A DNA stretch of 32,000 nucleotides from Candidatus Pelagibacter ubique HTCC1062 (GCF_000012345.1 NC_007205.1:1260001-1292000); one strand, 5' to 3'; positions 4,665 to 23,467 are shown, numbered from the stretch's first letter. Program-made: numbers and translations. The notes: generated from the letters alone by a model not told the origin.

Positions 4665-4678
4665 TTCTAAAAATTATA

Positions 4679-5644
4679 TTATCTTTTAACTTTTGCAAAC
4701 AAATTAGTTAATTCATAAACAATTGTAGCTGCTGCTAAAGATGTAACTTCTGCATGGTCATATGCTGGAGACACTTCAACTACATCCGCAGAAATTAAAT
4801 TTAAACCTGAAAGGCCTCTTATGACATTAACCATTTCTCTTGTAGTCATTCCTGCAATTTCGGGTGTACCCGTCCCAGGTGCAAAAGCAGGATCCAAAAC
4901 ATCTATATCAATAGATAAATAAAGTGGATTGTTCCCAACTCTTTTTCTTATTCTTTCAGCAATTTTATCTGTACCTTGTGTTTGAAATTCATCACAGTGA
5001 ATGATTTTAAAACCAAACTCTTCATCATTTTTAATATCATCTCTACTGTAAAGAGGACCTCTAATCCCAACATGCATTGAAGCATCATCTAAAAATAAAT
5101 TTTCTTCTCTTGCTCTTCTAAAAGGAGTTCCATGAGTATAGGGCGCTCCAAAATATGTGTCCCATGTATCTAGGTGAGCATCAAAATGTACTAAAGCAAC
5201 TGGCCCATTATTCATTTTATTAATAGCTCTTAGCAAAGGAAGAGCAATTGTGTGATCACCTCCTAAACTAATAATGCCACCTACTTTATCTAAAAGTTCC
5301 GTAGCCCCCTCTTCTATTTGTTTAATGGCTTCATCAATGTTAAATGGGTTACATGTAATGTCGCCTGCATCAGCAACTTGCTGAACTTTAAATGGTTCAA
5401 CGTCGTAACTTGGATGATAATTAGTTCTTAAATGTCTTGATGCCTGTCTAATACTCATGGGTCCAAATCTCGCACCAGCTCTATAACTAGTGCCTGCATC
5501 AAATGGAATTCCAACAATTGCTACGTCACAACTCTCAACATCTCTTAATTCTGGTAATCTTGCAAATGTAGATGGCCCTGCAAATCTTGGAACTTTAGTT
5601 CCACTTATTGGTTGTACTGGATTTTTGTTTCTTTCTTTTTTCAT
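4679..5644 (-). CDS. Agmatinase-family ureohydrolase (agmatinase, guanidinobutyrase or guanidinopropionase)
   Basis: 321 aa with the Mn-binding arginase-fold motifs GGDHTIALP, HFDAHLDTWD, SIDIDVLDPAFAPGTGTPE and ADVVEVSPAYD. It lies 14 bp upstream of the ALDH on the same strand. Confidence 0.85.
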   Translation of the reverse strand: MKKERNKNPVQPISGTKVPRFAGPSTFARLPELRDVESCDVAIVGIPFDAGTSYRAGARFGPMSIRQASRHLRTNYHPSYDVEPFKVQQVADAGDITCNPFNIDEAIKQIEEGATELLDKVGGIISLGGDHTIALPLLRAINKMNNGPVALVHFDAHLDTWDTYFGAPYTHGTPFRRAREENLFLDDASMHVGIRGPLYSRDDIKNDEEFGFKIIHCDEFQTQGTDKIAERIRKRVGNNPLYLSIDIDVLDPAFAPGTGTPEIAGMTTREMVNVIRGLSGLNLISADVVEVSPAYDHAEVTSLAAATIVYELTNLFAKVKR

Positions 5645-8373: not shown

Positions 8374-10592
8374 TTAATTAAAGGCTTTCCTGTTGCTAGT
8401 GTGTGTTTAATACGGTCTTGAGTTTCTTTTGTCTCTATTAATCTCATGAAAGCATCCAATTCTAATTTAAATAAATCATCTTCTGATAAAGTTTTATCTA
8501 TAGTTGTATCTCCTCCACTCAAAACATGAGCGAGTTCTTTTGCAACAGTAACACCGTGATCACGAATTATTTTTTCATTATAAAGGTTTTCTATAATTTT
8601 ATTCATTTCTATTAAAATTTCTTTTCCTGGTAGTTTAAATTCAGTCTCTGATGGAGTTTTAAATTCTTTATTGTCGTCTAAGATCTTTTTTGAAACTTCT
8701 AGTAAACTATTTCTATTCATTATTTTTTTATCTTCTGGTCTTAAATATTTTAATGGTTCTGCCTCAATTGGTGAAGTTGCTGTTTTTCCATAACCAATAA
8801 TATCAAATACTTTAAGTGGTGCATAATGAGGATCTTTTTTAGCCTCGTCTGTATCAAGCCATCTTGCCAACATTTCCTTACATCCACCTCCAGCTGGTAT
8901 CAGTCCAACTATTGTTTCCACTAATCCAACTACAATATTTGTATGTGAAGCAACAAAATTACTTTGGACCATTACTTCAAATCCACCTCCAAGAGTTAAA
9001 CCTGATGGTGCAGATATCACCGGGTGATTAGAATACTTAAGATGCTTGCAGGTTTCTTGAAAATATCTAATAAATTTTTCTATGGATTTAAAATCATTTT
9101 TGTTCGCAAAATCCATTGTATAACTCAAGTTTACTCCAGCAGAAAACTGCATGCTTTCATTTATTATAATCAAAGGTTTGTCTGTAGCTTTTTTTAAAGC
9201 ATCCATTGAATCATAATCTAGAGCATTTGCTTTAGTGGTAAACTCAACAATATTATAATCATTAAATCTATATATCTGTGCTGAACTGTTTCCATCTACA
9301 CTTAATGCTTTCTTTTTAGCTTTTCCAAACGTTTCAATGTCAGTGTATTTTTGTCTAGATCCATAAAAATCTTGATTTCTATTTTTAGATAAATTTTCTA
9401 AAAAAGCATTTCCCTTAAAGTCGTCTATTTTACCAAAAAAAGTTTCAACTCCGATTTCTTCTAACATTTCAAATGGACCTTTAGTCCAATTAAAACCTAA
9501 TCTCATTGCTTCATCAATATCATTGAAATCTTTTGTAATTGATGGAACTAAAGAAGAAGCATATTTGATAATCTTAGAAATAACAGACCAAGCATACTCA
9601 CCATACTTATCCTCTCTAGAAATTAATTCTTTAAGGTCTATTTTGTCTGATTTAATATTAATTTTTTTACTTGCAGAGTATTTTCCAGTTTCAAGATTAA
9701 TTGCTTCCATAACCTTAACTTCACCAGTTTTATTAACTCTATAAAATCCGCCCTTGCCTTTTCGACCGGTATATCCTGTTTCAATTAATTTTTTTACTAA
9801 AGGAATTTCTTTTGCAACTACTTGAAAAGGGTCATTTTCTGATAATTCTTTAATAAAACTTTTTAAAACATCGGCCATTAAATCAATACCAATTAAGTCA
9901 TAAAGACCAAACACACCTGTTTTTGGTATACCCATTGGTCTTCCAAAAATTGCATCAGCTTCTTCTATGCTAAGTTTCATTTTAAAAGCTTCATTCATTG
10001 CAACTTGCATTGCAAAAACACCTATTCTATTTCCTAAAAAGCCTGGCGTGTCATTACAAATAATTGCACCTTTTCCAAGTTCTGTTTCACAAAAAGCTTT
10101 TAGAGAGTTTATTTTATCTAAATCATTATTTTCATTTTTAACTATCTCTAATAATCCCATGTATCTGACTGGATTAAAAAAGTGAGTAATGCAAAAATCT
10201 TTTTTTTCTTCCTCTGATAAGTGTTGAGATAATATTTTGATAGGAATGGATGAAGTGTTTGAAGATACTATCGCACCTTTTTTTCTTTCTTTGAAAATTT
10301 TTTTATAGATATCATGTTTAATATCTATTCTTTCAACAACAGCTTCTACTACCCAGTCAGCTTCTTTTACTTCATCAAAATTATCTAAAATGTTTCCTAC
10401 TTTAATATTTTTTATTTTGGACTTATCTAACAAAAGTGGCGGTCTCGATTTGTAAATTTTATCTCGTGCTTGCTCACTTATTTCAGTTTTTAAATCTAGT
10501 AAAGTTACTGGAATATTTGCATTACACAAATGCGCTGCAATTCCACTACCCATAGTTCCTGAACCTATAACTACTACTTTTTTAATTTCCAT
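8370..10592 (-). CDS. Fused 3-hydroxyacyl-CoA dehydrogenase (N-terminal) and enoyl-CoA hydratase/crotonase-like (C-terminal) protein
   Basis: 740 aa. The N-terminal Rossmann motif VVIGSGTMGSGIAAH and the HFFNPV motif are typical of 3-hydroxyacyl-CoA dehydrogenases. The C-terminal part carries the crotonase-like GLTLGGGFEV and GLIPAGGG. Domain order is reversed relative to E. coli FadB. Confidence 0.8.
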   Translation of the reverse strand: MEIKKVVVIGSGTMGSGIAAHLCNANIPVTLLDLKTEISEQARDKIYKSRPPLLLDKSKIKNIKVGNILDNFDEVKEADWVVEAVVERIDIKHDIYKKIFKERKKGAIVSSNTSSIPIKILSQHLSEEEKKDFCITHFFNPVRYMGLLEIVKNENNDLDKINSLKAFCETELGKGAIICNDTPGFLGNRIGVFAMQVAMNEAFKMKLSIEEADAIFGRPMGIPKTGVFGLYDLIGIDLMADVLKSFIKELSENDPFQVVAKEIPLVKKLIETGYTGRKGKGGFYRVNKTGEVKVMEAINLETGKYSASKKINIKSDKIDLKELISREDKYGEYAWSVISKIIKYASSLVPSITKDFNDIDEAMRLGFNWTKGPFEMLEEIGVETFFGKIDDFKGNAFLENLSKNRNQDFYGSRQKYTDIETFGKAKKKALSVDGNSSAQIYRFNDYNIVEFTTKANALDYDSMDALKKATDKPLIIINESMQFSAGVNLSYTMDFANKNDFKSIEKFIRYFQETCKHLKYSNHPVISAPSGLTLGGGFEVMVQSNFVASHTNIVVGLVETIVGLIPAGGGCKEMLARWLDTDEAKKDPHYAPLKVFDIIGYGKTATSPIEAEPLKYLRPEDKKIMNRNSLLEVSKKILDDNKEFKTPSETEFKLPGKEILIEMNKIIENLYNEKIIRDHGVTVAKELAHVLSGGDTTIDKTLSEDDLFKLELDAFMRLIETKETQDRIKHTLATGKPLIN

Positions 10593-10648
10593 AAGATTTA
10601 AAAATTGAAGAATTGTTTATAATAAAAAAAATGATCTTAGTAAATCAA

Positions 10649-11503
10649 TTACCTATTAATTCCTCTTAGTCTTTCAGACCTTCTTCTTAAAAGTTCTGCA
10701 CTAACAAGAATTAATGTGGACATTATAATTAAACAAGTTGCCACTGCCATTATTGTTGGGCTTAGCTGTTCCCTTAGACCAACCCACATTTGAATTGGAA
10801 TAGTAGTGTTTTCAAGTCCTGCTAAGAATAACACAACAACAACTTCATCAAATGAAGTTACAAAGGCAAATAATGCACCAGAAATAACACCAGGTAAAAT
10901 TAATGGTAATGTTATTTTCATAAAAGTATTAACTGGATTACTCCCCAAACTTGATGCAGCACGTGTTACACTATGATCAAAACCTGTTAAAGTTGCTGTA
11001 ACTGTAATAACTACAAACGGTGTACCCAAAATAATATGAGATAAAATTATTCCTGTATGTGTTGCAGCTAAACCTACTTTTGCCATAAAGAAGAATATTG
11101 CTGTTCCTGAGATAATTAATGGCACAATCATTGGAGATATTAATAAAGCCATGAACGCTGCTTTATATGGCATATGCCTACTACTTAACCCTAGAGCAGC
11201 TACCGTTCCAAGTACTGTAGATCCAATTGTAGCAAAGAAAGCTATTATTAAACTGTTTTTTGTCGCAAGTCCCCAAGGATTTTTAGTCCCATAGATCATG
11301 TCTTCGTACCATCTTAATGAAAATGCGTCTGGGTCAAGGGCTATCATTCCCTTGGAAAAGTGAATGTATTGTTCTGCATTAAATGAAAGTGGTAAAATTA
11401 CAAATAGCGGTGCTATTAAAAAGAAAAATACCAACCCACAAATTGTTAAATAAGTATAATGCCAAATTCTATAATTCCAGGATGTGTAAGTTGGTAATGC
11501 CAT
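10649..11503 (-). CDS. ABC transporter permease, PotC/PotI-like
   Basis: 284 aa and six hydrophobic segments. The EAA-type loop is TRAASSLGSNPVNTFMKITLPLILPG. Confidence 0.85.
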   Translation of the reverse strand: MALPTYTSWNYRIWHYTYLTICGLVFFFLIAPLFVILPLSFNAEQYIHFSKGMIALDPDAFSLRWYEDMIYGTKNPWGLATKNSLIIAFFATIGSTVLGTVAALGLSSRHMPYKAAFMALLISPMIVPLIISGTAIFFFMAKVGLAATHTGIILSHIILGTPFVVITVTATLTGFDHSVTRAASSLGSNPVNTFMKITLPLILPGVISGALFAFVTSFDEVVVVLFLAGLENTTIPIQMWVGLREQLSPTIMAVATCLIIMSTLILVSAELLRRRSERLRGINR

Positions 11504-11506
11504 AAT

Positions 11507-12754
11507 TTATCCTAGTTTAATATTATCAATTCCCACTAATTTATTATAGATCCAGTAGATTGTTAACACTCCAACTAACAGCATAGAACCTAATGCTGCA
11601 GCAAACGACCAATCTAAAGAACTCTTCATATGATACGCAATCGTATTACTAATCAATGATCCACTCGCTCCACCAACTAATGCTGGAGTGATATAGTAAC
11701 CTATAGCTAAAATAAAAACTAATAAACAGCCTGCACCAATTCCTGGAATTGTTAATGGAAAATAAATTTGTCTAAATGCAGTAAATGGAGTTCCACCTAA
11801 TGATTTTCCAGCTCTCATTAAACTTGGAGATATTGTTTTCATCACACTGTAAAGTGGCAAAACCATAAAAGGTAATAAAATTTGTGTCATTGCAACAAAA
11901 GTGCCAACAACATTATACATTAACTCAGGTCTATTATCATCAGCAGCCCAACCTAGCCAAACAATTAGATCGTTTATAGGGCCCTGTTGTTGAAGTAAAA
12001 CCATCCAGCTAGAAGTTCTAACTAATAATGATGTCCAAAAGGGCAACAACACACATATCATCAATAAATTACTATATTTCATTGGTAGTGTGGCCAATAA
12101 ATGTGAAATTGGGTAAGCAAGCAAAAAGCAGAATACAGTTACCCAAAATGCAACTTTTATAGTTCTTAACCAGAGGATTTTATGAATTCTCCTGTCTTCA
12201 TCTTGTTGAATAATATTTCTGTCTTGATCAAATTTTAAATCAAGACCTTTTAGATATTTTGCATAAGACCAATTTGGAGCAGTATTCTTTAAAGCAATCC
12301 AATAATCCACGTTTCTCCATATTTTATGGGTTGCCATAAATTGTTCTTTATAATTAGCTTTTTCAAATTTTTTAATTTTTCTATTTGTTTTTTTTAATCC
12401 ACTACTAAAACCAGATTTTTCATAGTTTAATCTCTGATATAATTTTCCAGCTTCCTTGTTTATAGCCAATGGATAGAAATCTTTATAAAACGCCTCATAA
12501 GTTGCTTCATCAGGCAATTCTTTTCCATCCCATTTTTCTAAAGCAGCAAATGTGTTAGGTAATTTTTGTGTGATCATACGATCATCTACACTTCTAAATA
12601 GCATGTCTCCTATTGGAAATATGTATGTAATTATAAGGAATAAAAATAACGGACCTACAAGCATTAAAGCCTTTAGCTTATTTTTTCTCTCAGCTTTTTT
12701 TAGGCTTATCTCTAGAGGTATCCCGTCTGATGATAATATTTTTTCTGTACTCAT
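11507..12754 (-). CDS. ABC transporter permease, PotB/PotH-like, with a large hydrophilic insertion after TM1
   Basis: 415 aa. The EAA loop is MRAGKSLGGTPFTAFRQIYFPLTIPG. About 135 hydrophilic residues lie between the first and second hydrophobic segments. Classical PotB proteins are roughly 130 aa shorter. Confidence 0.8.
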   Translation of the reverse strand: MSTEKILSSDGIPLEISLKKAERKNKLKALMLVGPLFLFLIITYIFPIGDMLFRSVDDRMITQKLPNTFAALEKWDGKELPDEATYEAFYKDFYPLAINKEAGKLYQRLNYEKSGFSSGLKKTNRKIKKFEKANYKEQFMATHKIWRNVDYWIALKNTAPNWSYAKYLKGLDLKFDQDRNIIQQDEDRRIHKILWLRTIKVAFWVTVFCFLLAYPISHLLATLPMKYSNLLMICVLLPFWTSLLVRTSSWMVLLQQQGPINDLIVWLGWAADDNRPELMYNVVGTFVAMTQILLPFMVLPLYSVMKTISPSLMRAGKSLGGTPFTAFRQIYFPLTIPGIGAGCLLVFILAIGYYITPALVGGASGSLISNTIAYHMKSSLDWSFAAALGSMLLVGVLTIYWIYNKLVGIDNIKLG

Positions 12755-12768
12755 ATTTAAAATTTTTT

Positions 12769-12800
12769 AAAAAAAAAGGGCGGTTATTTTATAACCGCCC
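12769..12800 (-). terminator. Intrinsic terminator or attenuator just downstream of the binding-protein gene and upstream of the permease genes
   Basis: Perfect 10-bp GC-containing stem GGGCGGTTAT / ATAACCGCCC (12778-12800) with a 3-nt loop. On the minus strand it is followed by a run of 9 T (A-run 12769-12777 on plus). Confidence 0.7.
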
Positions 12801-12838
12801 TAATATTTTATAACAAAAACTTAATCTATAAAACTAAA

Positions 12839-13960
12839 TTATAGACCAGCTTTCATTGCTTCCCATTTTTCACCGATTTCATCTTGGTTATCTGCCCAGA
12901 AATCAGGGTTCATAAGAATGTATCTTTTTGTGTTAGCAGGTGCTGTTGGCATATGTGGTACCATACTTGTTTTACCATCTTTAAACCAAGGCTCTCCAGC
13001 TTCCATAACAGCAATTGAAGATTTTCTCCAAGGTGCGTATGCAATATACTTAGCACTTCCAGCTAAACCTTCTGAGCTAGTCATTTCTCTAAGTACTTTC
13101 ATAGCGCTACCGTCAGCATAACCTGGACCATCTTTAACTAATGCAAAATATTCATAGTCAAGAATTTGTCCATCCCATACTTGTACAAGTGGAGTTCCTT
13201 CCATTTGCGCATTAAAGAATCTACCGTTCCAACCAGTTGCCATTACTACTTCACCATTAGCTAGTAGTTCTGGTGGTTGAGCTCCAGCATTCCAGAATAC
13301 ACATCCACCATTTGGATCTGTACAAAGTGCTTTAAGCTTGTTCATAGCTCTATCAATACCGCCGTCAGCATCAAGTTTTCTGTAAGTTAAGTCAGAACCT
13401 TTACCAGGGTTTACACCGTCTGCAGTGATAGCAATCTCTAAGTTAGACATTGCACCTTTGTAAATTGCTCTTTTACCAGGGAAGTTTTTAGTATCAAAAA
13501 AGTCTTTCAATGAGTTAGGCTTTTTAGCACCGATTGTTGCATCGTTATAAGCATAGTTCCAAGAGTACAGAATGTTTCCAACTGCACATTTTGAAGGCAT
13601 GCTTGTAAAGAAGTCCTGACTTGCAGGTGTTCCATCTGGAGCAGGTGCAAAGTCTTTATCAAAATCGAATTCATGGAAAATTCCTTCGTCACATCCAACG
13701 ATAGTGTCTTTTGCGTAAACATCGATGATGTCCCAAGTGATTTTTCCAGCTTCTTTTTGAGCTTTAATTTCTGATAATCCACCAGTGTAGTCTACCCAGT
13801 TTACAGGTATACCTAATTTAGCAGCAGTAGGATCACCATACCCTAATTTTTGACTTTCAGTATAAGCACCACCCCAAGACACTACAGTAACTGCAAATGC
13901 TGAAGTCGTGATAGAAAGTACAAAAGATAGAGCAAGTAATAATTTACTTAATTTTTTCAT
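12839..13960 (-). CDS. Periplasmic substrate-binding protein of an ABC importer (family 1, PotD/PotF-like)
   Basis: 373 aa with the signal peptide MKKLSKLLLALSFVLSITTSAFA. Size and composition fit PotD/PotF-like binding proteins. It has a strong SD (AGGAGAG) and is visibly richer in G/C than its neighbours. Confidence 0.8.
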   Translation of the reverse strand: MKKLSKLLLALSFVLSITTSAFAVTVVSWGGAYTESQKLGYGDPTAAKLGIPVNWVDYTGGLSEIKAQKEAGKITWDIIDVYAKDTIVGCDEGIFHEFDFDKDFAPAPDGTPASQDFFTSMPSKCAVGNILYSWNYAYNDATIGAKKPNSLKDFFDTKNFPGKRAIYKGAMSNLEIAITADGVNPGKGSDLTYRKLDADGGIDRAMNKLKALCTDPNGGCVFWNAGAQPPELLANGEVVMATGWNGRFFNAQMEGTPLVQVWDGQILDYEYFALVKDGPGYADGSAMKVLREMTSSEGLAGSAKYIAYAPWRKSSIAVMEAGEPWFKDGKTSMVPHMPTAPANTKRYILMNPDFWADNQDEIGEKWEAMKAGL

Positions 13961-14094
13961 TTTCTCTCCTATTTAACGTTAACGTTTGTTATTTTATAAA
14001 GTGAAAGTAAAACAATATAGGATACTTTAGTCAACAGGCAATTATGGCTAATTTGCCTTTATTTTATTTATATTTTATTAGGATAGTTTTTAAA

Positions 14095-15183
14095 TTATTT
14101 TGGATCTAAGGCTCTACAGTCAATACTATTCCAGCCTATATCTAGTACATTACCCTTTTTAAGGTCTAATCTTGCAGTACTATTTGGTACTTTAAGGATA
14201 AAATCTTTATTACCTAGTAAGTCAACTCTAAGTCTTGTGTGATCGCCGTGATAAATTATTTCTTCTATTTTTCCTTTATGATTATTATCCATCTTATCTG
14301 AAGGATCTATAATTGCTCTTTCGGGTCTTAGTGAAACTTTAGTCTTATCCCCTTTTGCTTTAACAGCAACTGGATTTGCTAAAATTTCTGTGCCATTTTC
14401 TAATTTAACTTTACATTTATCTCCTGAAATATCTAAAACTTGACCTGAAAATTTATTATTTTCTCCAATGAACTCAGCAACAAACGAATTAACTGGTTTT
14501 TCATACAATTCATCAGGACTTGATAGTTGCTGAACTTTACCATCATTGAAAACTGCAATACGGTTTGACATTGTTAATGCTTCCGTTTGATCGTGTGTAA
14601 CATACACAACTGTTACACCAATACTTTCGTGAATATGTTTAATTTCATATTGCATGCTTTCTCTTAAATTTTTATCTAATGCTCCAAGTGGTTCATCCAT
14701 TAATACCACTTGTGGATCAAAAACTAATGATCTTGCAACAGCAACACGCTGTTGTTGTCCACCTGATAATTGCATCGGCATTCTTGCTTCAAAACCATGA
14801 AGTGAAACCATGGATAAAGCTTTATCTATTTTTTTATCAGCTTCATCTTTTGGAATTTTTCTAACTCTTAATGGAAAAGCTAAATTTTCATAAACAGTCA
14901 TGTGTGGAAATAAAGCATAGTTCTGGAATACCATTCCTATTCCTCTTTTGTGAGGTGGAATATTTGAAATAACCTTACCATCTAAATAAATTTCTCCATG
15001 AGTTGGTGTTTCAAAACCAGCCAGCATCATAAGACAAGTTGTTTTACCAGAACCAGAGGGTCCTAGCATAGTTACAAATTCACCTTCTTCAATGTCTAGA
15101 TTTAATCCTTTAACGACCAATACTTTGCCATCATAGCTCTTGTCTACATTGTCAAATTTTACAAATTCTTTGTTTTTAGTCAT
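14095..15183 (-). CDS. ABC transporter ATP-binding protein, PotA-like
   Basis: 362 aa with Walker A GPSGSGKTT, signature LSGGQQQRVAVAR and Walker B VLMDEPLGALD. It carries a C-terminal TOBE-like regulatory domain. Confidence 0.9.
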   Translation of the reverse strand: MTKNKEFVKFDNVDKSYDGKVLVVKGLNLDIEEGEFVTMLGPSGSGKTTCLMMLAGFETPTHGEIYLDGKVISNIPPHKRGIGMVFQNYALFPHMTVYENLAFPLRVRKIPKDEADKKIDKALSMVSLHGFEARMPMQLSGGQQQRVAVARSLVFDPQVVLMDEPLGALDKNLRESMQYEIKHIHESIGVTVVYVTHDQTEALTMSNRIAVFNDGKVQQLSSPDELYEKPVNSFVAEFIGENNKFSGQVLDISGDKCKVKLENGTEILANPVAVKAKGDKTKVSLRPERAIIDPSDKMDNNHKGKIEEIIYHGDHTRLRVDLLGNKDFILKVPNSTARLDLKKGNVLDIGWNSIDCRALDPK

Positions 15184-15241
15184 ATTTTCTAAATGGATTT
15201 AAAACATTTGTGAGCTTATTTATCAAGTTTTTTTATTTTAA

Positions 15242-16408
15242 TTATTTAATGTGAAGATCTTTTGAAAAATTACAAAATAGCTCACTTCCTTGATCCGTAA
15301 CTCTTATTGCTTCAGAAGCTTCAACTCCCCAATTTCCAAATTGCATAACAGCAATCATATGAAAAGTAATATTTGGCTCTAAAATTGTCATATCTCCTTT
15401 TGATATATTTAAAGTGTGTTCCCCCCAATCAGGTGGGTAACCAATTCCGATAGAATATCCAGTACGAGAGGTTTTCTCTATACCGTACTTATCTAGAACC
15501 TTCCAAAATGCCTGAGCCACATCATCTGCAGTTTTTCCTGGTTTGATAGCATCAATACCTGCCTGCAAGGCTTCGTTTGTTTTTTTCATTGTATCAATTT
15601 TAAGTTGGTCAGCTTTTCCAAGAAGCACTGTTCTTGCCATAGGACAATGGTATTTTTTATGAGAACCTGAAAGTTCAATAATTGTTGCTTCGCCCTCTAC
15701 AAATTTATCTTCTGTCCATGTTAAATGAGATGCTGATGTACCTTTGCCAGTTGGAAGCATTGGAACAATAGACGCATAATCTCCACCAAACTCAGGAGTT
15801 CCCTTTATTAGAGCCGCTTGTATTTCTGATACAGCATCACATTGTCTTACCCCAGGATTGATTACTTCAAAAGCTTTCTTCATTCCTGTTTGAACTATTA
15901 ATGATGCAGCTTTCATTAAATTAATTTCAGTATCTGATTTTACAACTCTAACCCAGTTGACTAATCTTTCACAATCTGAAATTTTTGCATTGGGTAAACC
16001 TGATTTTATTTTTTCATAACAGTAGGCAGTAAAATAATGACTGTCCATTTCAACTCCAATAGAAAGTTTATCCCATTTTCTTTCTTTAATAATATCTGTT
16101 AAAGCTTCATAAGGGTGAAGCGGCCAATTATGAATATATTTTTCACCATACTTTATAATATTTTCATCTTTCAAATAAGTTTTAATATATGCTCCACCAG
16201 CATCTTGGTCTCTAACAAAACATAAGGGCTCATCTGCATTAATATGAACTATGACACATTGGGCATAATAGAATGACCAAGCATCATAACCTGTTAAATA
16301 ATTCATGTTCGATGGATCCTGAGAGATTAATACATCAATGCCTTTATCTTGCATTGATTTTTGAACCTTCTTTAATCTATTTTTGTATTCTTCTTTTGTA
16401 AAATTCAT
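15242..16408 (-). CDS. M24-family (creatinase/Xaa-Pro peptidase fold) hydrolase, ectoine hydrolase DoeA/EutD-like
   Basis: 388 aa with the blocks DPSNMNYLTGYDAWSFY, VNWVRVVKSDTEI, EFGGDYASIVPMLPTG...HLTW, YHCPMARTVLLGK and SRTGYSIGIGYPPDWGEHT. As I recall them, these resemble DoeA/EutD much more than classical creatinase. This rests on memory and was not searched. Confidence 0.65.
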   Translation of the reverse strand: MNFTKEEYKNRLKKVQKSMQDKGIDVLISQDPSNMNYLTGYDAWSFYYAQCVIVHINADEPLCFVRDQDAGGAYIKTYLKDENIIKYGEKYIHNWPLHPYEALTDIIKERKWDKLSIGVEMDSHYFTAYCYEKIKSGLPNAKISDCERLVNWVRVVKSDTEINLMKAASLIVQTGMKKAFEVINPGVRQCDAVSEIQAALIKGTPEFGGDYASIVPMLPTGKGTSASHLTWTEDKFVEGEATIIELSGSHKKYHCPMARTVLLGKADQLKIDTMKKTNEALQAGIDAIKPGKTADDVAQAFWKVLDKYGIEKTSRTGYSIGIGYPPDWGEHTLNISKGDMTILEPNITFHMIAVMQFGNWGVEASEAIRVTDQGSELFCNFSKDLHIK

Positions 16409-17155
16409 TTAGTTAAATTTAAATAGTTTTCCAAAACCTTCAATACTATTTTTATAGCCAATAGCATTTAGACTTTCCCAAATTAATGTTTGATTGCTAG
16501 ATAAAATGACTTTATTCATTTTTTTTTCAAGCTTATCGATTATCGATAATACTGGTAATGCCGTACAAGACACAAATAATGCCTCACTATCTTCTAAATT
16601 AATTTTTGACAAAACTTCAAATAAATATTCTTCATCTACTTTTCCAATATCTAAATCAGACTCAATATCAAAATATGTTAATCCATCAACTGCAATATTT
16701 TCTTTATTAAAATAATTTATAACTGAGTCGTTTATACTTTTTGTATAAGGGGTAAAAACCGATACTTTGTTAATGTTAAAAGCTTTTAAAGCCTTAATAG
16801 CAGATGTAATTGGGGTGGTAACTTTTGCTTCAGGCTTGGCTAACTTCACATTTTTTTCAATCACATCATAACCTGCTGCAATTGTTCCTGATGTACATCC
16901 ATAAGCAACACAATCTATTTTTTGATCTGGTAAAATATCTTTAGTGACATCGGTAATATCATCTGCCATTTTAGCTAACGTTTCGTTGGTCAAGGGATTG
17001 TAACAATGTATTCGATTAACATACAGATCTACATCTCTTCCATAGATCACATTATTAAAATCCTTTTCAATTCTAAAATCGCTACCAAGCGTTATAAGAC
17101 CAATTCTTGGGTTCGATTTTGAAATATATTTTGGCTCAACCTTGTTTAATTTCAT
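16409..17155 (-). CDS. Asp/Glu/hydantoin-racemase superfamily protein (EutA / maleate isomerase / arylmalonate decarboxylase-like)
   Basis: 248 aa. Two Cys-containing motifs, AYGCTSGT and VSCTALPV, sit at the spacing expected for two-Cys racemase/isomerase active sites. There is no gap to the M24 gene (16408/16409). Confidence 0.6.
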   Translation of the reverse strand: MKLNKVEPKYISKSNPRIGLITLGSDFRIEKDFNNVIYGRDVDLYVNRIHCYNPLTNETLAKMADDITDVTKDILPDQKIDCVAYGCTSGTIAAGYDVIEKNVKLAKPEAKVTTPITSAIKALKAFNINKVSVFTPYTKSINDSVINYFNKENIAVDGLTYFDIESDLDIGKVDEEYLFEVLSKINLEDSEALFVSCTALPVLSIIDKLEKKMNKVILSSNQTLIWESLNAIGYKNSIEGFGKLFKFN

Positions 17156-17322
17156 AAATTACCTGTAATATTTGGATTAAATATATATTGAATAAGGAGT
17201 CTAGTTAAAATAAAGTTTAACAAAAGCGTACATAACTCGTCGTTACCTAAGGTTTAAACGGTACTAAAGAATACGAAAGTGGGATCAGTCGTCTTTAAAT
17301 TTAACTATTTAAGGGGGTTTGA

Positions 17323-18489
17323 ATGAAATTTGGATATTTTTGTAACACTACTAATTGGAATCATAAACCATACAATCAACTATTAAAAGAAACCCAAGAG
17401 ATCACTATTTACTGTGATGAAAATAATTGGGACTCTATTTGGTATACCGAACATCACTTTAATCATGAAGGAATGGAATCTTGTACAAATCCTTTAATGA
17501 TGGGTGTGGATGCGGCCGCCAGAACAAAACAAATAAGAATAGGTCAAGCTTGTAATGTAATTACATTTCATAATCCTATCCGTCTAGCTGAAGACATTGC
17601 GTTGCTAGATCAATTGTCTGGAGGAAGAGTTGATGTTGGTATTGGAAGAGGAATTTACGGAAGAGAAGCTATCAATATGAATAAAGAAGCTGACTTAAAA
17701 GATCAGGCAAAAAATTTTAGGTTGTTTGATGAGTCATTAACCATAATGAAAAAAGCTTGGACAGAAGAATTTTTTAGTCACCAGGGTGAGTTTTACACTT
17801 ATCCATCACCAAATTTTACTTGGCAACATGACATGAGTCCACCTAGTGAAAAGTTTTTAGATACAAAAACAAATGAAATTAAAAAAATTAGCGTTGTACC
17901 AAAACCAAAACAAGAGCCACATCCGCCAATATGGCAAGTTGTGGATGGTGCACGTTCAATTGAATGGGCGGCACAGAATGGCTTAAATACAATAATGTGG
18001 ATACCTACAGTTAAAGCATTAAAGAAAAGGTTTGAAATTTATAGAGATGCAAAATCAAAAACTGAAAATAGAGAAGTGCCGCTTGGAGAAGGTATATCTT
18101 TAGTTAGAGATATGTTTGTTGCTGAAACTATGGAAGAAGCTGAAAAAATGGCTGGTGAGCATATTATCAATTATATGAAATGGGTTTGTCATTGGAGAGG
18201 TTTGGGTAATCATATGGATCCAGGAGAAGAACTACCAGAAACAAAACATAAATTAGACTTACTTAATTATGATTTTTTACATAAAAGAAATTTATTATTT
18301 GGAACACCAGAATATGTTGTTAATAAAATAAATGAATTAAAATCAGAATTAAATTTACAAAATCTTCAAGTTTGGTCTAATTTTCCTGGAATAGATCATG
18401 AGGCTTGCATGAGAAGTATAAAACTGTTTAATGATGAGGTTATACCAAAGATTAATTTAGACAATTCAAGTATCGAAAAGGCAAGTTAA
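17323..18489 (+). CDS. Luciferase-like (LLM class) flavin-dependent monooxygenase/oxidoreductase
   Basis: 388 aa with the LLM pattern W.TEHHF........NP..........T..IR.G......T.HNP.R.AED.A.LD.LSGGR...G.GRG. It is preceded by a strong SD (AAGGGGG). Confidence 0.8.
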   Translation: MKFGYFCNTTNWNHKPYNQLLKETQEITIYCDENNWDSIWYTEHHFNHEGMESCTNPLMMGVDAAARTKQIRIGQACNVITFHNPIRLAEDIALLDQLSGGRVDVGIGRGIYGREAINMNKEADLKDQAKNFRLFDESLTIMKKAWTEEFFSHQGEFYTYPSPNFTWQHDMSPPSEKFLDTKTNEIKKISVVPKPKQEPHPPIWQVVDGARSIEWAAQNGLNTIMWIPTVKALKKRFEIYRDAKSKTENREVPLGEGISLVRDMFVAETMEEAEKMAGEHIINYMKWVCHWRGLGNHMDPGEELPETKHKLDLLNYDFLHKRNLLFGTPEYVVNKINELKSELNLQNLQVWSNFPGIDHEACMRSIKLFNDEVIPKINLDNSSIEKAS

Positions 18490-19076
18490 TGAAATTAGAG
18501 CTTAGAAAGTTTACAAAATTTGTAGATAAAACTTTTATCGAAGGTGGTAAGGAAGCTAAAGAGCCTGTTTTGATGGTTTCTGTTGCAGCTGTATTTAAAA
18601 ATCCATGGCATGGAAAAGGCTTTGTTGAAGATTTAAAACCAATTATTTTAGATTTAGCACCTAAATTAGGTGATATTTTAGTTCCAGAGTTAATAAAGGA
18701 GATTGGATCACCTGAAAAAATTTTGGCGTATGGAAAAGCTGGTACGGTCGGACTTGATGGTGAAATTGAGCATGCCTCAGCATTTATTCACACTTTAAGA
18801 TTTGGAAATAAATTTAGAGATGCGGTTGGGGGAACATCTTATTTAAGCTTTACCAATACCAGAGGTCCAGCTGGATCCAAAATGTCTATTCCAATGATGC
18901 ATAAAACAGATTCAGGTCTAAGGCCTTATTATTTAACTCATGAATTTACGATTCATGATGCTCCTTTTGATGATGAAATTGTTATAGCAATTGGTGGAGC
19001 CTCCACAGGTAGAGCTCATGCTAGAACGGGTGATCGTTATCAAGACATGAAAGAAATGGGAATAGATCCCAAATAA
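18489..19076 (+). CDS. AA_synth / DUF1185 'amino acid synthesis' family protein of unknown biochemical function
   Basis: 195 aa. Length and blocks (VAAV.KNPW.G.....L.P..........L......YGKAG.VG..GE.EH..A..H.........S.P..HK...G) match my recollection of this family. The start overlaps the LLM stop (TAATG at 18487-18491). Confidence 0.6.
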   Translation: MKLELRKFTKFVDKTFIEGGKEAKEPVLMVSVAAVFKNPWHGKGFVEDLKPIILDLAPKLGDILVPELIKEIGSPEKILAYGKAGTVGLDGEIEHASAFIHTLRFGNKFRDAVGGTSYLSFTNTRGPAGSKMSIPMMHKTDSGLRPYYLTHEFTIHDAPFDDEIVIAIGGASTGRAHARTGDRYQDMKEMGIDPK

Positions 19077-19080
19077 ATTA

Positions 19081-19863
19081 ATGTTTCAAAATTTTGATCC
19101 AAATCAAAATTATTATTCATTTAATGATAAAAATACAGTTCCTGTAGTTTTTATTCATGGTGTCGGACTTGATCAGCGGATGTGGGAACCTCAAATTGAA
19201 GCTTTCAAAGAATATTCATTAATTACATATGATTTATTAGGGCATGGAAAAACTATTCTCAATAAAGAAGATGTAACATTAAATGATTTTTCAAACCAAC
19301 TAAAATCGATATTAGAATATTTAAAAGTGGATAAGATTAATCTTGTTGGTTTTTCTTTAGGTTCTTTAATTGCACTAAATTTTGCCTCTAAATTTCAAGA
19401 CAAACTAAACAGCCTTGTTGTAATGGGTACAACATATAAAAGAACTTCAGAACAAAGGTCTTTGGTTATAGAAAGATTTGAACAGGCTAAATTAAACAAA
19501 CCTATTTCAAAACAAGCCCTAAAAAGATGGTTTACCAATCAATACTTAAATGACCATCCAGAAACTTATAATCAATTTATAAAAATTTTGACAAAAAATA
19601 AAAAAGATCATTTAAATTTTTTAAAAGCTTACAAATTATTTGCTTATCATGAGGACAATACAGATATAATTAAAAATATTAAAACTAGGACTCTTGTGAT
19701 GACAGGTTCAAATGATTCAGGATCTACTGTCGAGATGTCAAAATCTTTATGTGAAGATTTAATAAACTCAAGTTTTATTGAGATAAATAATGGAAAACAT
19801 CTTTGTAGTATAGAGTGTGCAGATGATGTTAATATCAATCTTAAAAATTTTATTAATAGATAA
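19081..19863 (+). CDS. Alpha/beta-fold hydrolase (enol-lactonase/esterase-like)
   Basis: 260 aa with the oxyanion-hole region VVFIHGVG and the nucleophile elbow GFSLGS. The C-terminal GKHLC holds a candidate catalytic His. Confidence 0.8.
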   Translation: MFQNFDPNQNYYSFNDKNTVPVVFIHGVGLDQRMWEPQIEAFKEYSLITYDLLGHGKTILNKEDVTLNDFSNQLKSILEYLKVDKINLVGFSLGSLIALNFASKFQDKLNSLVVMGTTYKRTSEQRSLVIERFEQAKLNKPISKQALKRWFTNQYLNDHPETYNQFIKILTKNKKDHLNFLKAYKLFAYHEDNTDIIKNIKTRTLVMTGSNDSGSTVEMSKSLCEDLINSSFIEINNGKHLCSIECADDVNINLKNFINR

Positions 19864-21345
19864 ATGACAAAAATTCAAAACTTTAAAATGTATATAAATG
19901 GACTGTGGGTTAATTCAGAGTCTGGAAAAACAATAGAAACTGTAAACCCAGAAAACAACGAAGTTTGGGCAACTGTTCCTGAAGCTAACGAGAAGGATGT
20001 AGATAAAGCAGTTAAGGCCGCACAAAATGCTTTTGAAAAATCTTGGTCAAATTTACACCCAAGAGAAAGAGCTAAATACTTAAGGTCTCTTGCAGATCAA
20101 TTAAGACAAAATGCTGAACATCTTGGAACTATAGAAACAATTGATACAGGAAAAATTTTTAGAGAAACAAAAACACAAGCTAACTATATTGCTGAGTATT
20201 ACGATTATTTTGCAGGACTAGCCGATAAAGTTGAAGGAACAGTTGTGCCAATTGATAAGCCAGACATGCAAGTAACAACTACTAGAATACCTATTGGTGT
20301 TGTTGCTGCGATAATTCCTTGGAACTCCCAAATGTTATTAACTGCAGTAAAATTAGCACCCGCATTAGCAATGGGTAATACAGTTGTAATAAAAGCTTCT
20401 GAACTAGCGCCTGTAACATTATTAGAATTTGCAAAACTAGTTGAAAAATCAGGTATACCTAAAGGTGTTGTAAATATAATTACTGGTCTAGGTGAGCCTT
20501 GTGGTAAAGCTCTAACTACACATGACCTTGTAGAAAGAATTGCTTTTACAGGTGGTCCTGAAACCGCAAAACATATTGTTAAAAATTCAGCAGAAAATTT
20601 ATCGCAAGTAAGCTTAGAACTTGGTGGAAAAAGTCCTGTTGTCGTATTCGATGATGCCGAGCAAGAGAACGCACTAAATGGAATTACTGCTGGTATCTTT
20701 GGTGCAAGTGGTCAAAGCTGTATTGCAGGATCACGACTTTACATCCAATCTAAAATTTATGATGACTTCTTAAATAAGCTAATAGCCAAGGCTGAAAAAA
20801 TAAAATTAGGAGCTCCTATGGATAATGAAACTCAAATGGGACCTTTAAATAGTTATAAACAACTAGAAAATATAGAAAAAAATATCAAAGCTACAATTGA
20901 GCAAGGTGGAAAAATTAGATGCGGTGGAAAAAGGTCCAATATATCTAGTAAAGCTTATTATTTTCCAGCTACAATTATTGAGTGTGAAAATCATAATTTG
21001 CCTACAGCAGAGAATGAATTATTTGGTCCAGTTTTATCTGTTATGAAATTTGAAACAGAAGAGGATGTGATTAAATTAATGAATGATAATAAATATGGCT
21101 TATCTTCTGGAGTTTATACCTCAAACTTCGGAAGAGGTTTGAGAGTATCAAAAGCAATTAGAGCTGGAATTACTTTTGTAAATACTTATAGGTTAATTTC
21201 ACCCATGGCCCCGTTTGGAGGAATTAAAGATAGTGGATATGGAAAAGAAGCAGGAATTGAGTCAATTAAAGAATACACAAGAATAAAAACCACATGGTTA
21301 AATTCATCGGATAAACCAATGACTGATCCATTTACAATGGGTTAA
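19864..21345 (+). CDS. NAD(P)+-dependent aldehyde dehydrogenase
   Basis: 493 aa with ELGGKSPVVVF, GQSCIAGSR, FTGGPE and PFGGIKDSGYGKE. The start abuts the hydrolase stop (TAAATG). Confidence 0.9.
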   Translation: MTKIQNFKMYINGLWVNSESGKTIETVNPENNEVWATVPEANEKDVDKAVKAAQNAFEKSWSNLHPRERAKYLRSLADQLRQNAEHLGTIETIDTGKIFRETKTQANYIAEYYDYFAGLADKVEGTVVPIDKPDMQVTTTRIPIGVVAAIIPWNSQMLLTAVKLAPALAMGNTVVIKASELAPVTLLEFAKLVEKSGIPKGVVNIITGLGEPCGKALTTHDLVERIAFTGGPETAKHIVKNSAENLSQVSLELGGKSPVVVFDDAEQENALNGITAGIFGASGQSCIAGSRLYIQSKIYDDFLNKLIAKAEKIKLGAPMDNETQMGPLNSYKQLENIEKNIKATIEQGGKIRCGGKRSNISSKAYYFPATIIECENHNLPTAENELFGPVLSVMKFETEEDVIKLMNDNKYGLSSGVYTSNFGRGLRVSKAIRAGITFVNTYRLISPMAPFGGIKDSGYGKEAGIESIKEYTRIKTTWLNSSDKPMTDPFTMG

Positions 21346-21349
21346 TTTT

Positions 21350-22207
21350 TTGACTGTCAGACATTATTTTTTAGTTTTATTTATCATGTTTCTTTTTGGT
21401 AGTTCTTATCCAATTAATAAACTTGCATTAAACACATCCCTCACCCCTGTATTGGCAGCCTCATTGAGAATGTTTATACTTTTTGTTTGTCTTGTTCCTT
21501 TTTGTAAATTTAAAATCCCAAACAAAAAATACTATCTGCCTTTAGCAGGTTTTTCTTTTTCAATGGGCTTTGGTGTTTTTATTTTTTTAAATTTATCTCT
21601 GCAAAAAGCAACTATGGTTGCTCCTATAATTATTGGAGCTCAACTAGCAATACCCTTTGCAATTCTGGCAAGCTCTTTATTTTTAGGTGAAAAGGTAACT
21701 CCTAAAATGTGGGTATTAATATTTATTTCTTTTTTTGGAATTTTTTTAATTGGTTATGATCCAAATTTAAAAAGTGAAATTTTTGCAATTTTTCTTTGTG
21801 CAATTTCTGCTTTTTTCTATGGTGTTGCGAATGTGTTTTCTAGATATATTAAAGATATAGATGTTAAATTAACCAACACAGTTATGGGCTTTACTGGTTT
21901 TATACTGCTTTTTCTTTTTTCCATTTTTTTTGAAGGAAACACAGTTTATCAATTACTAAATATTGATTTTTATACTTGGCTTTTATTACTCCATAATGGG
22001 GTGATGGTTTCTGTAATTGCACACACTTCATTATTTTATTTATATAAATTTTATTCAGTAAATAAAATTATGCCCTTTTATTCTTTATTTCCAGTATTTG
22101 GCCTAATCCTAACGTTCTTTATATTCGGAGAAATCCCAACTCTACTTAGTGCGATTGGTGGTTTAATTATAATATTTTCTGTATATAGGCTTCAAAAAAT
22201 TAGATAA
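21350..22207 (+). CDS. DMT-superfamily (EamA-like) transporter
   Basis: 285 aa and about ten hydrophobic segments in two EamA-like halves. The track start is a TTG; an in-frame ATG 12 codons downstream is an alternative. Confidence 0.75.
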   Translation: MTVRHYFLVLFIMFLFGSSYPINKLALNTSLTPVLAASLRMFILFVCLVPFCKFKIPNKKYYLPLAGFSFSMGFGVFIFLNLSLQKATMVAPIIIGAQLAIPFAILASSLFLGEKVTPKMWVLIFISFFGIFLIGYDPNLKSEIFAIFLCAISAFFYGVANVFSRYIKDIDVKLTNTVMGFTGFILLFLFSIFFEGNTVYQLLNIDFYTWLLLLHNGVMVSVIAHTSLFYLYKFYSVNKIMPFYSLFPVFGLILTFFIFGEIPTLLSAIGGLIIIFSVYRLQKIR

Positions 22208-22282
22208 TTCTCCTATTGAAAATTCGTTTAAATAGTCTTTAATTTGATTTTTATAAATTGTTAACAATCAAAGAGGAAAATA

Positions 22283-23467
22283 ATGAAAAAACTATTTATT
22301 GCTGCTTTTATATTCGTTTCTACTTTTACAACGAATACATTCGCAGAAGTTAAAATGGGAATCATTTTAGGATTTACTGGTCCTATTGAATCTCTAACAC
22401 CAGCTATGGCTGCATCTGCAGAGCTTGCATTTAAAGAAGCTTCTGACTCAGGTTCACTATTAGGTGGAGAAACTATTTCAGTAGTAAGAGCAGATTCAAC
22501 TTGTGTTGATTCAGCAGCAGCAACAGCAGCAGCAGAAGGTGTTATTGCACAAGGTGTTGCAGCAATTATGGGTGCTGACTGTTCAGGTGTAACTGGTGCT
22601 ATTGCATCTAATGTTGCTGTACCAAATGGTGTAGTAATGATTTCACCTTCAGCAACTTCTCCAGGACTTACAGCTTTAGATGATAAAGGCTTCTTTTTTA
22701 GAACAGCCCCATCTGATGCTAGAGGTGGTCAGATTTTAGCTGATATTACTAAAGACAGAAAAATCAAAAGTGTAGCAATTACTTACACTAACAATGACTA
22801 TGGAAAAGGTTTGGCTGATGTTTATGAAGCAGCTGTAAAAGCTCATGGTATTAAAGTAACAACTGTATCTGCTCACGAAGATGGTAAAGCAGATTACTCA
22901 TCTGAAGTAGCAACTTTAGCTTCAGCAGGTGGTGATGCCGTAGCAGTAATTGGTTACCTAGACCAAGGTGGAAAAGGAATTATTCAAGGTTCTTTAGACT
23001 CTGGTGCATTTGATAAATTTATTTTATCTGATGGTATGATCGGTGACTCATTAACTGAAGCTTTTGGAAAAGATTTAAATAAATCTTTTGGTTCAATTCC
23101 TGGTTCAATGAATAAAAAAACAGCAGGTACTTTTGCCTCTGTTGCTAAAGCAGCGGGTATCGACTCATCTGGACCTTACACTGGTGAATCTTATGATGCA
23201 GCAGCTTTAATCGTTCTTGCGATGCAAGCAGGTGGATCAGCAGATAGAGCTTCTATTGCAAAAAATGTAATGGATGTTGCTAATGCCCCTGGTACTAAGA
23301 TTTACCCAGGTGAACTTAAAAAAGGTTTAGACTTACTAGCTAAAGGTAAAAAAGTTGACTACGAAGGTGCAACTGGTGTTACTTTTACTAACGTAGGTGA
23401 AGCTGAAGGTTCTTTCCTAGAAAAAGAAATCAAAGGTGGAAAATTCAAAAATAAAAAACAAAGATAA
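22283..23467 (+). CDS. livJ: Periplasmic binding protein of a LIV-type (branched-chain/general amino acid) ABC transporter
   Basis: 394 aa with the signal peptide MKKLFIAAFIFVSTFTTNTFA and the type I PBP pattern G...G.TGP.......ISP.ATSP.LT....FFFRT.PSD..QG. It is Ala/Gly-rich with a higher-GC composition, and has an SD (AGAGGA) and its own terminator. Confidence 0.85.
   Translation: MKKLFIAAFIFVSTFTTNTFAEVKMGIILGFTGPIESLTPAMAASAELAFKEASDSGSLLGGETISVVRADSTCVDSAAATAAAEGVIAQGVAAIMGADCSGVTGAIASNVAVPNGVVMISPSATSPGLTALDDKGFFFRTAPSDARGGQILADITKDRKIKSVAITYTNNDYGKGLADVYEAAVKAHGIKVTTVSAHEDGKADYSSEVATLASAGGDAVAVIGYLDQGGKGIIQGSLDSGAFDKFILSDGMIGDSLTEAFGKDLNKSFGSIPGSMNKKTAGTFASVAKAAGIDSSGPYTGESYDAAALIVLAMQAGGSADRASIAKNVMDVANAPGTKIYPGELKKGLDLLAKGKKVDYEGATGVTFTNVGEAEGSFLEKEIKGGKFKNKKQR

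Follow-up and report, generated by a model that had tools for sequence, protein, structure and literature searches.

A 32,000-nucleotide stretch of the genome of Candidatus Pelagibacter ubique HTCC1062, a member of the SAR11 bacteria (NC_007205.1:1260001-1292000, referred to here as the window), carries six consecutive minus-strand genes that place two enzymes resembling those of ectoine degradation next to an importer of the Pot type. In the order of transcription, the genes encode a EutA-like protein, a DoeA/EutD-like hydrolase of the M24 family, an ATP-binding cassette (ABC) ATPase, a periplasmic binding protein, and two permeases (Table 1). The six open reading frames (ORFs) lie exactly in the order and at the coordinates given by a first-pass annotation of this DNA, and the family labels assigned there agree as resemblances. 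The stop codon of the EutA-like gene abuts the start of the M24 gene with zero gap at 16408/16409, the ATPase gene follows the M24 gene after 58 nt, and a spacer of 134 nt precedes the binding-protein gene. A hairpin pattern scan found no terminator-like sites between the EutA-like, M24, and ATPase genes. Together, the genes may encode the uptake and ring opening of ectoine or a related osmolyte.

Table 1. Positions of the genes and other features of the window that are discussed in the text.
Feature	Position	Strand	Basis
EutA-like protein, 248 aa	16409-17155	minus	ORF listing; TIGR02990 resemblance
DoeA/EutD-like M24 "pita-bread" hydrolase, 388 aa, creatinase-type N-domain	15242-16408	minus	TIGR02993, PDB 6TWK
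ABC ATPase, PotA-type with TOBE domain, 362 aa	14095-15183	minus	TIGR01187; Pfam ABC_tran, TOBE_2
SBP_bac_8 periplasmic binding protein, 373 aa	12839-13960	minus	~93% identity to PDB 8JV1-4
Hairpin and U-run, 3' of the binding-protein gene	12777-12801	minus	pattern only
PotB-like permease, 415 aa, with ~135-residue periplasmic insertion	11507-12754	minus	NCBIfam profile search
PotC-like permease, 284 aa	10649-11503	minus	NCBIfam and Pfam profile searches
ArgE-type M20 deacylase, 396 aa, candidate EutE stand-in	2016-3206	plus	ArgE models passed
Divergent 167-bp spacer between the EutA-like gene and the LLM cassette	17156-17322	no strand	ORF listing
LLM-DUF1185-hydrolase-ALDH-EamA cassette, divergent from the EutA-like gene	17323-22207		ORF listing

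The M24 protein is matched by the EutD model TIGR02993 with an E value of 3e-138 and 461.4 bits (462.5 bits in a search of the whole genome), and its closest characterised enzyme is DoeA of Halomonas elongata (PDB 6TWK; E value of 8e-105, 44% identity). Its two domains (Pfam Creatinase_N and Peptidase_M24) place it in one fold family with creatinase and the Xaa-Pro peptidases, which are far more distant, with E values of 2e-10 for creatinase and 6e-14 for prolidases. Identities as a creatinase, a prolidase, or DddP were rejected because these matches are much weaker than the match to DoeA. The residues conserved throughout the family are retained (H228, E245, Y253, H254, R259, R315, Y318, E330, H350, and E366 in the numbering of the window protein), and we infer that the protein works like a DoeA-type hydrolase. 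It is labelled "ectoine hydrolase" by JGI and "M24 family metallopeptidase" by NCBI, and among 1.8 billion representatives no protein from outside SAR11 exceeded 43% identity to it.

In 401 genomes of the phylum, scores against the EutD model form a continuum between 832 and 244 bits, and genomes with a certified EutD also carry paralogs scoring 375 to 485 bits. Of the 35 EutD genes in the comparison set that scored at least 610 bits, 34 have EutE directly adjacent, whereas the sub-cutoff rhizobial paralogs do not. In rhizobia that possess a canonical eutABCDE cluster, as many as three extra EutD-like paralogs are present as well (L066:8314-10657 and L067:8598-10947), some of which are tandem pairs beside genes for amino-acid-type ABC transporters and some of which are paired with an M20D amidohydrolase. 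A careful maximum-likelihood tree search united the verified DoeA of H. elongata, all of the EutD proteins encoded next to EutE, and a Rhodobacteraceae-like group in one core clade with support of 100/100. Among the SAR11 sequences of this tree, the M24 genes of a second SAR11 family (g6 and g8; rows L027 and L030) nest within those of Pelagibacter (g1), and g7 branches first, a topology that may point to transfer of the gene from one SAR11 family to another. One further Pelagibacter genome (G015:C1:309000-329000, L035) contains a second DoeA-like gene at 9191-10408 that is 42% identical, belongs to a different deep clade, and is overlapped by an ORF of 500 aa.

The EutA-like protein is matched by the EutA model TIGR02990 with an E value of 8e-58 and 195.7 bits and is 31% identical to certified EutA. 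It belongs to a superfamily that includes Asp/Glu racemase, maleate isomerase, and arylmalonate decarboxylase, and its top match in the PDB is the maleate isomerase 4FQ7, a cis-trans isomerase. The pair of catalytic cysteines predicted by the first-pass annotation is present: C87 (in the motif YGCTSG) and C197 (in VSCTALP) align with both cysteines of 4FQ7 and of certified EutA and are invariant among the SAR11 copies inspected. The best relatives from outside SAR11, at no more than 37% identity, are mostly certified EutA proteins encoded within 3 kb of EutD. To our knowledge, no role has been established for canonical EutA itself.

The Pot-type transporter of SAR11, known as a "polyamine" transporter, is highly expressed. 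Its ATPase in the window passes the subfamily model TIGR01187 (374.6 bits versus a cutoff of 355.6) and does not reach the PotA equivalog, the permeases fall under the PotB (152 versus 348 bits) and PotC (141.5 versus 326 bits) cutoffs, and the binding protein matched no NCBIfam model. An AlphaFold2 model of the binding protein, built from an alignment of 23 sequences, was discarded at a predicted local distance difference test (pLDDT) score of 37.9. The binding protein is approximately 93% identical to PDB entries 8JV1-4, which carry the name "Spermidine/putrescine-binding periplasmic protein," and SAR11 genomes contain one match to it each at E values of 1e-40 or below. It is very probably SAR11_1336 ("PotD"), an osmolyte binder of broad specificity, judging from this identity. 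As described by Clifton et al. 2024 (PMC11485210), SAR11_1336 is annotated as potD and is not a polyamine binder; its ligands are glycine betaine, with a dissociation constant of 2.0 nM, dimethylsulfoniopropionate (DMSP), and other osmolytes, and it corresponds to the multifunctional osmolyte transporter that Noell and Giovannoni 2019 measured in vivo. SAR11_1336 is also treated as an importer of DMSP and betaine in a later paper (PMC13310141). The assignment of the transporter to the spermidine/putrescine class therefore stands by homology but not as a function, since osmolytes and not polyamines are the reported ligands. The earlier premise that a Pot-type importer is at odds with ectoine enzymes is likewise outdated: because the importer itself carries osmolytes, it is no argument against an osmolyte substrate, and since the enzyme genes precede an osmolyte importer and not a polyamine importer, enzymes and transporter no longer stand in contrast.

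A gene for a core-clade EutD lies beside the same transporter type in a Rhodobacteraceae-like genome (G456), with 61% identity for PotA, 38% for the binding protein, 50% for the long form of PotB (L077:12503-13921, over 417 aa), and 55% for PotC. On these identities, G456 is an independent recurrence of the link between enzyme and importer. The periplasmic insertion of approximately 135 residues in PotB is also present in the permease of G456 and is not specific to SAR11.

Conservation was assessed across 151 genomes of the order, including 77 Pelagibacter genomes and 73 from the other eight genera. The M24 and EutA-like genes occur together in 75 of the 77 Pelagibacter genomes and are jointly missing from the remaining two (G109 and G136), for an agreement of 77/77. 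By their coordinates, the two genes are adjacent in 71 of these 75 genomes. Co-conservation, the lack of which the first-pass annotation had regarded as refuting, holds for the enzyme pair within Pelagibacter, while the link to the Pot genes is limited to that genus. Four genera of the same family jointly lack M24, the EutA-like protein, the ArgE-like protein, LLM, and the binding protein. In the second SAR11 family, an ortholog of the binding protein is 61 to 65% identical and lies on another contig or tens of kilobases from M24.

The M24 gene has other neighbours in other SAR11 genera. In g6 (L030:9276-12761), it is the last gene of a tight operon with a Rieske oxygenase of the GbcA/Stc2 type and an M20D amidohydrolase. 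The set in g7 (L032:3123-10863) is larger and includes a Rieske oxygenase, EamA, a pyridoxal phosphate (PLP) enzyme that resembles diaminopropionate ammonia-lyase by motif only, M20D, a distant EutA-like gene, and M24. In g8 (L028:8243-10524), an amidinotransferase-like gene lies directly upstream of the DoeA-like M24 gene, with a gap of 6 nt. This gene is an ortholog (73% identity) of one that follows a third, distant M24 paralog in HTCC1062 (C1:671507-673795, L003), which scores 77 bits against the EutD model. These pairings suggest that amidino or guanidino metabolism may be linked with creatinase-fold enzymes.

The first-pass annotation had noted that the eutB, eutC, and eutE/doeB partners of characterised ectoine degraders are not visible in the window, and profile searches extend this to the complete genome, which consists of one contig of 1,308,759 bp and is 99.8% complete; all genome-wide negatives refer to this assembly. 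There was no match to EutE or EutC, and EutB, which like EutC belongs to the hydroxyectoine branch, drew only weak matches to generic PLP enzymes. As PMC8739950 quotes Mais et al. 2020, an ectoine hydrolase gene is recognised by a juxtaposed eutE/doeB gene, which the complete genome does not provide.

A candidate for the missing deacetylase is the ArgE-like protein encoded in the window 13 kb from M24. This protein passes both PRK07522 (435.6 versus 412 bits) and TIGR01892 (340.5 versus 297.7 bits). The genome also encodes ArgJ, so that ArgE would be dispensable for arginine synthesis. The ArgE-like gene is present in 75 of the 77 Pelagibacter genomes and in none of the 73 genomes of the other eight genera, and it always lies in the neighbourhood of M24. 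In two Rhodobacteraceae-like genomes (G320 and G520), a core-clade EutD is encoded in an operon with an ArgE-like gene whose product is 48 to 49% identical to the SAR11 ArgE-like protein; this EutD-adjacent copy is the best match to the SAR11 protein in each genome, and the operon of G320 also includes a class-III aminotransferase. None of the five Rhodobacteraceae-like genomes of this type contains a certified EutE. The second SAR11 family does not have the ArgE-like gene; there, one operon joins M24 to the gene for an M20D amidohydrolase, of which HTCC1062 has no ortholog. With ArgE-like in Pelagibacter and M20D in the second family, some deacylase therefore always accompanies M24. The proposal that the ArgE-like protein is a candidate N-alpha-acetyl-diaminobutyrate deacetylase replacing EutE thus gains real support from this genomic context. 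The first-pass annotation had suggested a minimal ectoine route completed by distant genes. One of its two candidates, the ArgE-like protein, is favoured by the presence of ArgJ, which makes it spare, by its restriction to Pelagibacter, and by relatives that adjoin core-clade EutD. The other, the aldehyde dehydrogenase (ALDH) at 19864-21345, was rejected as a specific partner because 21 genomes with EutA-M24 are without its LLM cassette. In one Pelagibacter genome (G087:C1:836000-856000, L090), a TAA codon divides the EutA-like gene and the ArgE-like gene contains three stops, and the genes for M24 and the transporter and those of the LLM cassette are undamaged. This single case may be a hint of the joint decay of two proposed partners or may reflect an assembly error.

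With an osmolyte importer and two co-inherited genes for ectoine-like ring opening, SAR11 bacteria may have a pared-down route for the use of ectoine or a related osmolyte. The chances appear evenly divided that these genes form a Pelagibacter module for osmolyte uptake and ring opening whose substrate would be ectoine, 5-hydroxyectoine, or a close analogue. Ectoine or hydroxyectoine is our best guess at this substrate, at about even odds. In such a route, zwitterionic osmolytes would enter through the SAR11_1336 importer, for which binding of glycine betaine and DMSP is known from published experiment. The M24 protein, by homology with DoeA, would act as an amidine hydrolase on ectoine, 5-hydroxyectoine, or a very close analogue, opening its ring to yield an N-alpha-acetyl-diamino acid, and the EutA-like two-cysteine racemase/epimerase would act on a stereocentre of the substrate or product. 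The ArgE-type M20 deacylase, to judge from its context, would remove the acetyl group in place of the absent EutE. More speculatively, a generic class-III aminotransferase may convert diaminobutyrate to aspartate semialdehyde, which would enter central metabolism. The broader proposal, that Pelagibacter carries out EutE-independent catabolism of ectoine, hydroxyectoine, or another cyclic-amidine osmolyte and that marine Rhodobacteraceae have made the same exchange of ArgE for EutE, is tentative, and we hold it with less than even confidence.

Several results weigh against ectoine as the substrate or against a joint role of enzymes and importer. The M24 protein scores below the TIGR02993 equivalog cutoff of 613 bits and the EutA-like protein below the TIGR02990 equivalog cutoff of 318. 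In the tree, the SAR11 M24 proteins form a clade of their own (support of 98/100) outside the core EutD clade, so that the test proposed by the first-pass annotation came out divided: the protein is much nearer to DoeA than to prolidases or creatinase but does not fall among the certified EutD proteins. Of 134 positions that are invariant in the core clade, SAR11 retains 65%, compared with 65 to 73% for rhizobial paralogs that coexist with true EutD, and positions conserved nearly family wide are changed in SAR11 (R347S, W367Q, and W67C/L in H. elongata numbering; R347 and W367 correspond to S336 and Q356 of the SAR11 enzyme). The genome contains generic class-III aminotransferases only and no certified diaminobutyrate transaminase, and EutD is stated, in the available text of PMC8739950, to need EutE for efficient work. 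The literature searched contained no evidence of ectoine binding by SAR11_1336 and no report that SAR11 uses ectoine. Finally, adjacency of M24 and the Pot genes is confined to the genus Pelagibacter, and the transporter is independent of the enzymes: one of the two genomes without the enzyme pair (G109) has kept the transporter, with EutA-M24 replaced by unrelated genes and the ArgE-like gene also lost.

These observations bear differently on three other explanations. It is quite conceivable, although we place it short of an even chance, that the same enzyme logic serves a substrate other than ectoine, for instance a guanidino compound, an N-acyl amino compound, or a different cyclic amidine present in seawater. 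The first-pass annotation had already raised a different cyclic amidine or guanidino-type solute, and the sub-cutoff scores of both enzymes, the separate deep clade of M24, and a retention of EutD-invariant residues no better than that of paralogs favour such a solute. The SAR11-specific changes F253I, F254I, F362M, W367Q, and R347S, which lie beside conserved residues of the catalytic region, point in the same direction, as do the absence of EutB, EutC, and EutE, the Rieske oxygenase and M20D or amidinotransferase-like neighbours of M24 in other SAR11 genera, and the rhizobial paralogs at 449 to 457 bits that likewise pair with M20D. No characterised relative points to an alternative substrate, however, since prolidase and creatinase are far more distant than DoeA. 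An approximately unbiased (AU) test did not reject a position of the SAR11 proteins as sisters of the core EutD clade (p = 0.245), and core-clade EutD is independently associated with this type of Pot transporter and with this ArgE-like subfamily, which fits ectoine.

The enzymes and the importer may also be mere neighbours in a compact genome, in which case the importer would serve nothing but glycine betaine and DMSP and whatever the M24 and EutA-like proteins act on would enter otherwise. The separate locations of the binding-protein gene and M24 in the second family of SAR11, the retention of the transporter in G109 after the loss of M24, EutA-like, and ArgE-like genes, and the 134-bp spacer before and hairpin after the binding-protein gene, which suggest separate control, would all be consistent with this. 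We nevertheless consider it improbable: M24 adjoins potA in all eight Pelagibacter loci inspected and lies within approximately 2.5 kb of the binding-protein gene even in the four rearranged genomes, the 58-nt gap between M24 and potA contains no terminator-like site, and the same transporter type adjoins core-clade EutD in an unrelated genome. Those four rearranged genomes (G011, G105, G134, and G033), in which M24 stays with the transporter genes, would support a third explanation, in which the EutA-like isomerase serves the LLM-DUF1185-hydrolase-ALDH cassette, for example in a cis-trans step like that of maleate isomerase, its top match in the PDB, and does not serve M24. In all four, the EutA-like gene remains divergently adjacent to LLM. 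Yet LLM is missing from 21 Pelagibacter genomes that have EutA-M24 and present in both genomes that lack the pair, it lies at least 20 kb from the EutA-like gene in many genomes, and the EutA-like stop codon abuts the M24 start, all of which make a dedicated role in the LLM cassette very improbable.

The most abundant bacteria in the sea are those of SAR11, and the known consumers of ectoine are copiotrophs such as Ruegeria. Ectoine, an osmolyte rich in nitrogen, is released by phytoplankton and diazotrophs of the sea (for example, PMC13012070). If ectoine is the substrate of the module proposed here, SAR11 would be a major and presently uncounted sink for it, and the most highly expressed transporter of SAR11 would supply a third kind of osmolyte catabolism, next to those of glycine betaine and DMSP. 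An exchange of an ArgE-type deacylase for EutE, of which the Rhodobacteraceae-like genomes give an independent instance, would also alter the recognition of ectoine degraders from genomic and metagenomic sequence, and surveys that use the eutD-eutE pair as a marker would overlook a considerable part of the ocean's ectoine consumers. The function of the transporter is already published, and the enzyme pair, as known from its sequence, is real, conserved, and ecologically relevant. In the literature searched, no paper linked doeA/eutD to SAR11 or mentioned the presumed neighbouring tags SAR11_1335 and SAR11_1337-1339. Since HTCC1062 can be cultivated and the binding protein has already been purified, the question is directly testable.

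Other features of the window concern the expression and surroundings of these genes. The strong hairpin that follows the binding-protein gene has a stem of 11 bp, 6 of them GC pairs, continues into TTTTTTTT, and is probably a partial terminator or stabiliser that would give an excess of binding-protein mRNA. A search of 10000-23000, including the spacer at 17156-17322, found no relevant Rfam families, and promoter-like sites were no more frequent than in shuffled sequence. At 3228-5644, a minus-strand gene pair that converges with the ArgE-like gene encodes an aldehyde dehydrogenase and an agmatinase-family ureohydrolase, the latter scoring above the agmatinase cutoffs. The window's whole left half looks like a catabolic neighbourhood for nitrogen-rich solutes.

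The canonical clusters for ectoine degradation are eutABCDE-ssd-atf in Ruegeria pomeroyi and Sinorhizobium meliloti and doeABCD in H. elongata. Like these clusters, the SAR11 locus encodes a DoeA/EutD-type M24 protein and a two-cysteine EutA-type protein together near an osmolyte importer, and the nearest characterised relative of the SAR11 M24 protein is DoeA. Unlike them, the SAR11 genome is without EutE/DoeB, EutB, EutC, EnuR, and a certified transaminase, and both of its proteins are sub-cutoff and outside the certified clade. Its importer is of the Pot type and not Ehu (ABC) or Ueh/Tea (of the TRAP, or tripartite ATP-independent periplasmic, type), and its candidate deacetylase is of the ArgE type (M20) and not of the AstE/AspA type. 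The transporter genes of the window are very probably those of the SAR11 osmolyte ABC transporter described by Clifton et al. 2024 and Noell and Giovannoni 2019, and the two enzyme genes upstream of them are not discussed in the main text of PMC11485210. There is a further parallel with the Rhodobacteraceae-like genomes G320, G520, and G456. Their EutD proteins fall inside the core clade, whereas the SAR11 M24 protein falls outside, and the ArgE-like gene of G320 and G520 is adjacent, whereas that of SAR11 is 13 kb away. SAR11 nevertheless shares with G320 and G520 the same ArgE-like subfamily (48 to 49% identity), with G456 the Pot-type transporter with the long form of PotB, and with these genomes a complement of genes without certified EutE.

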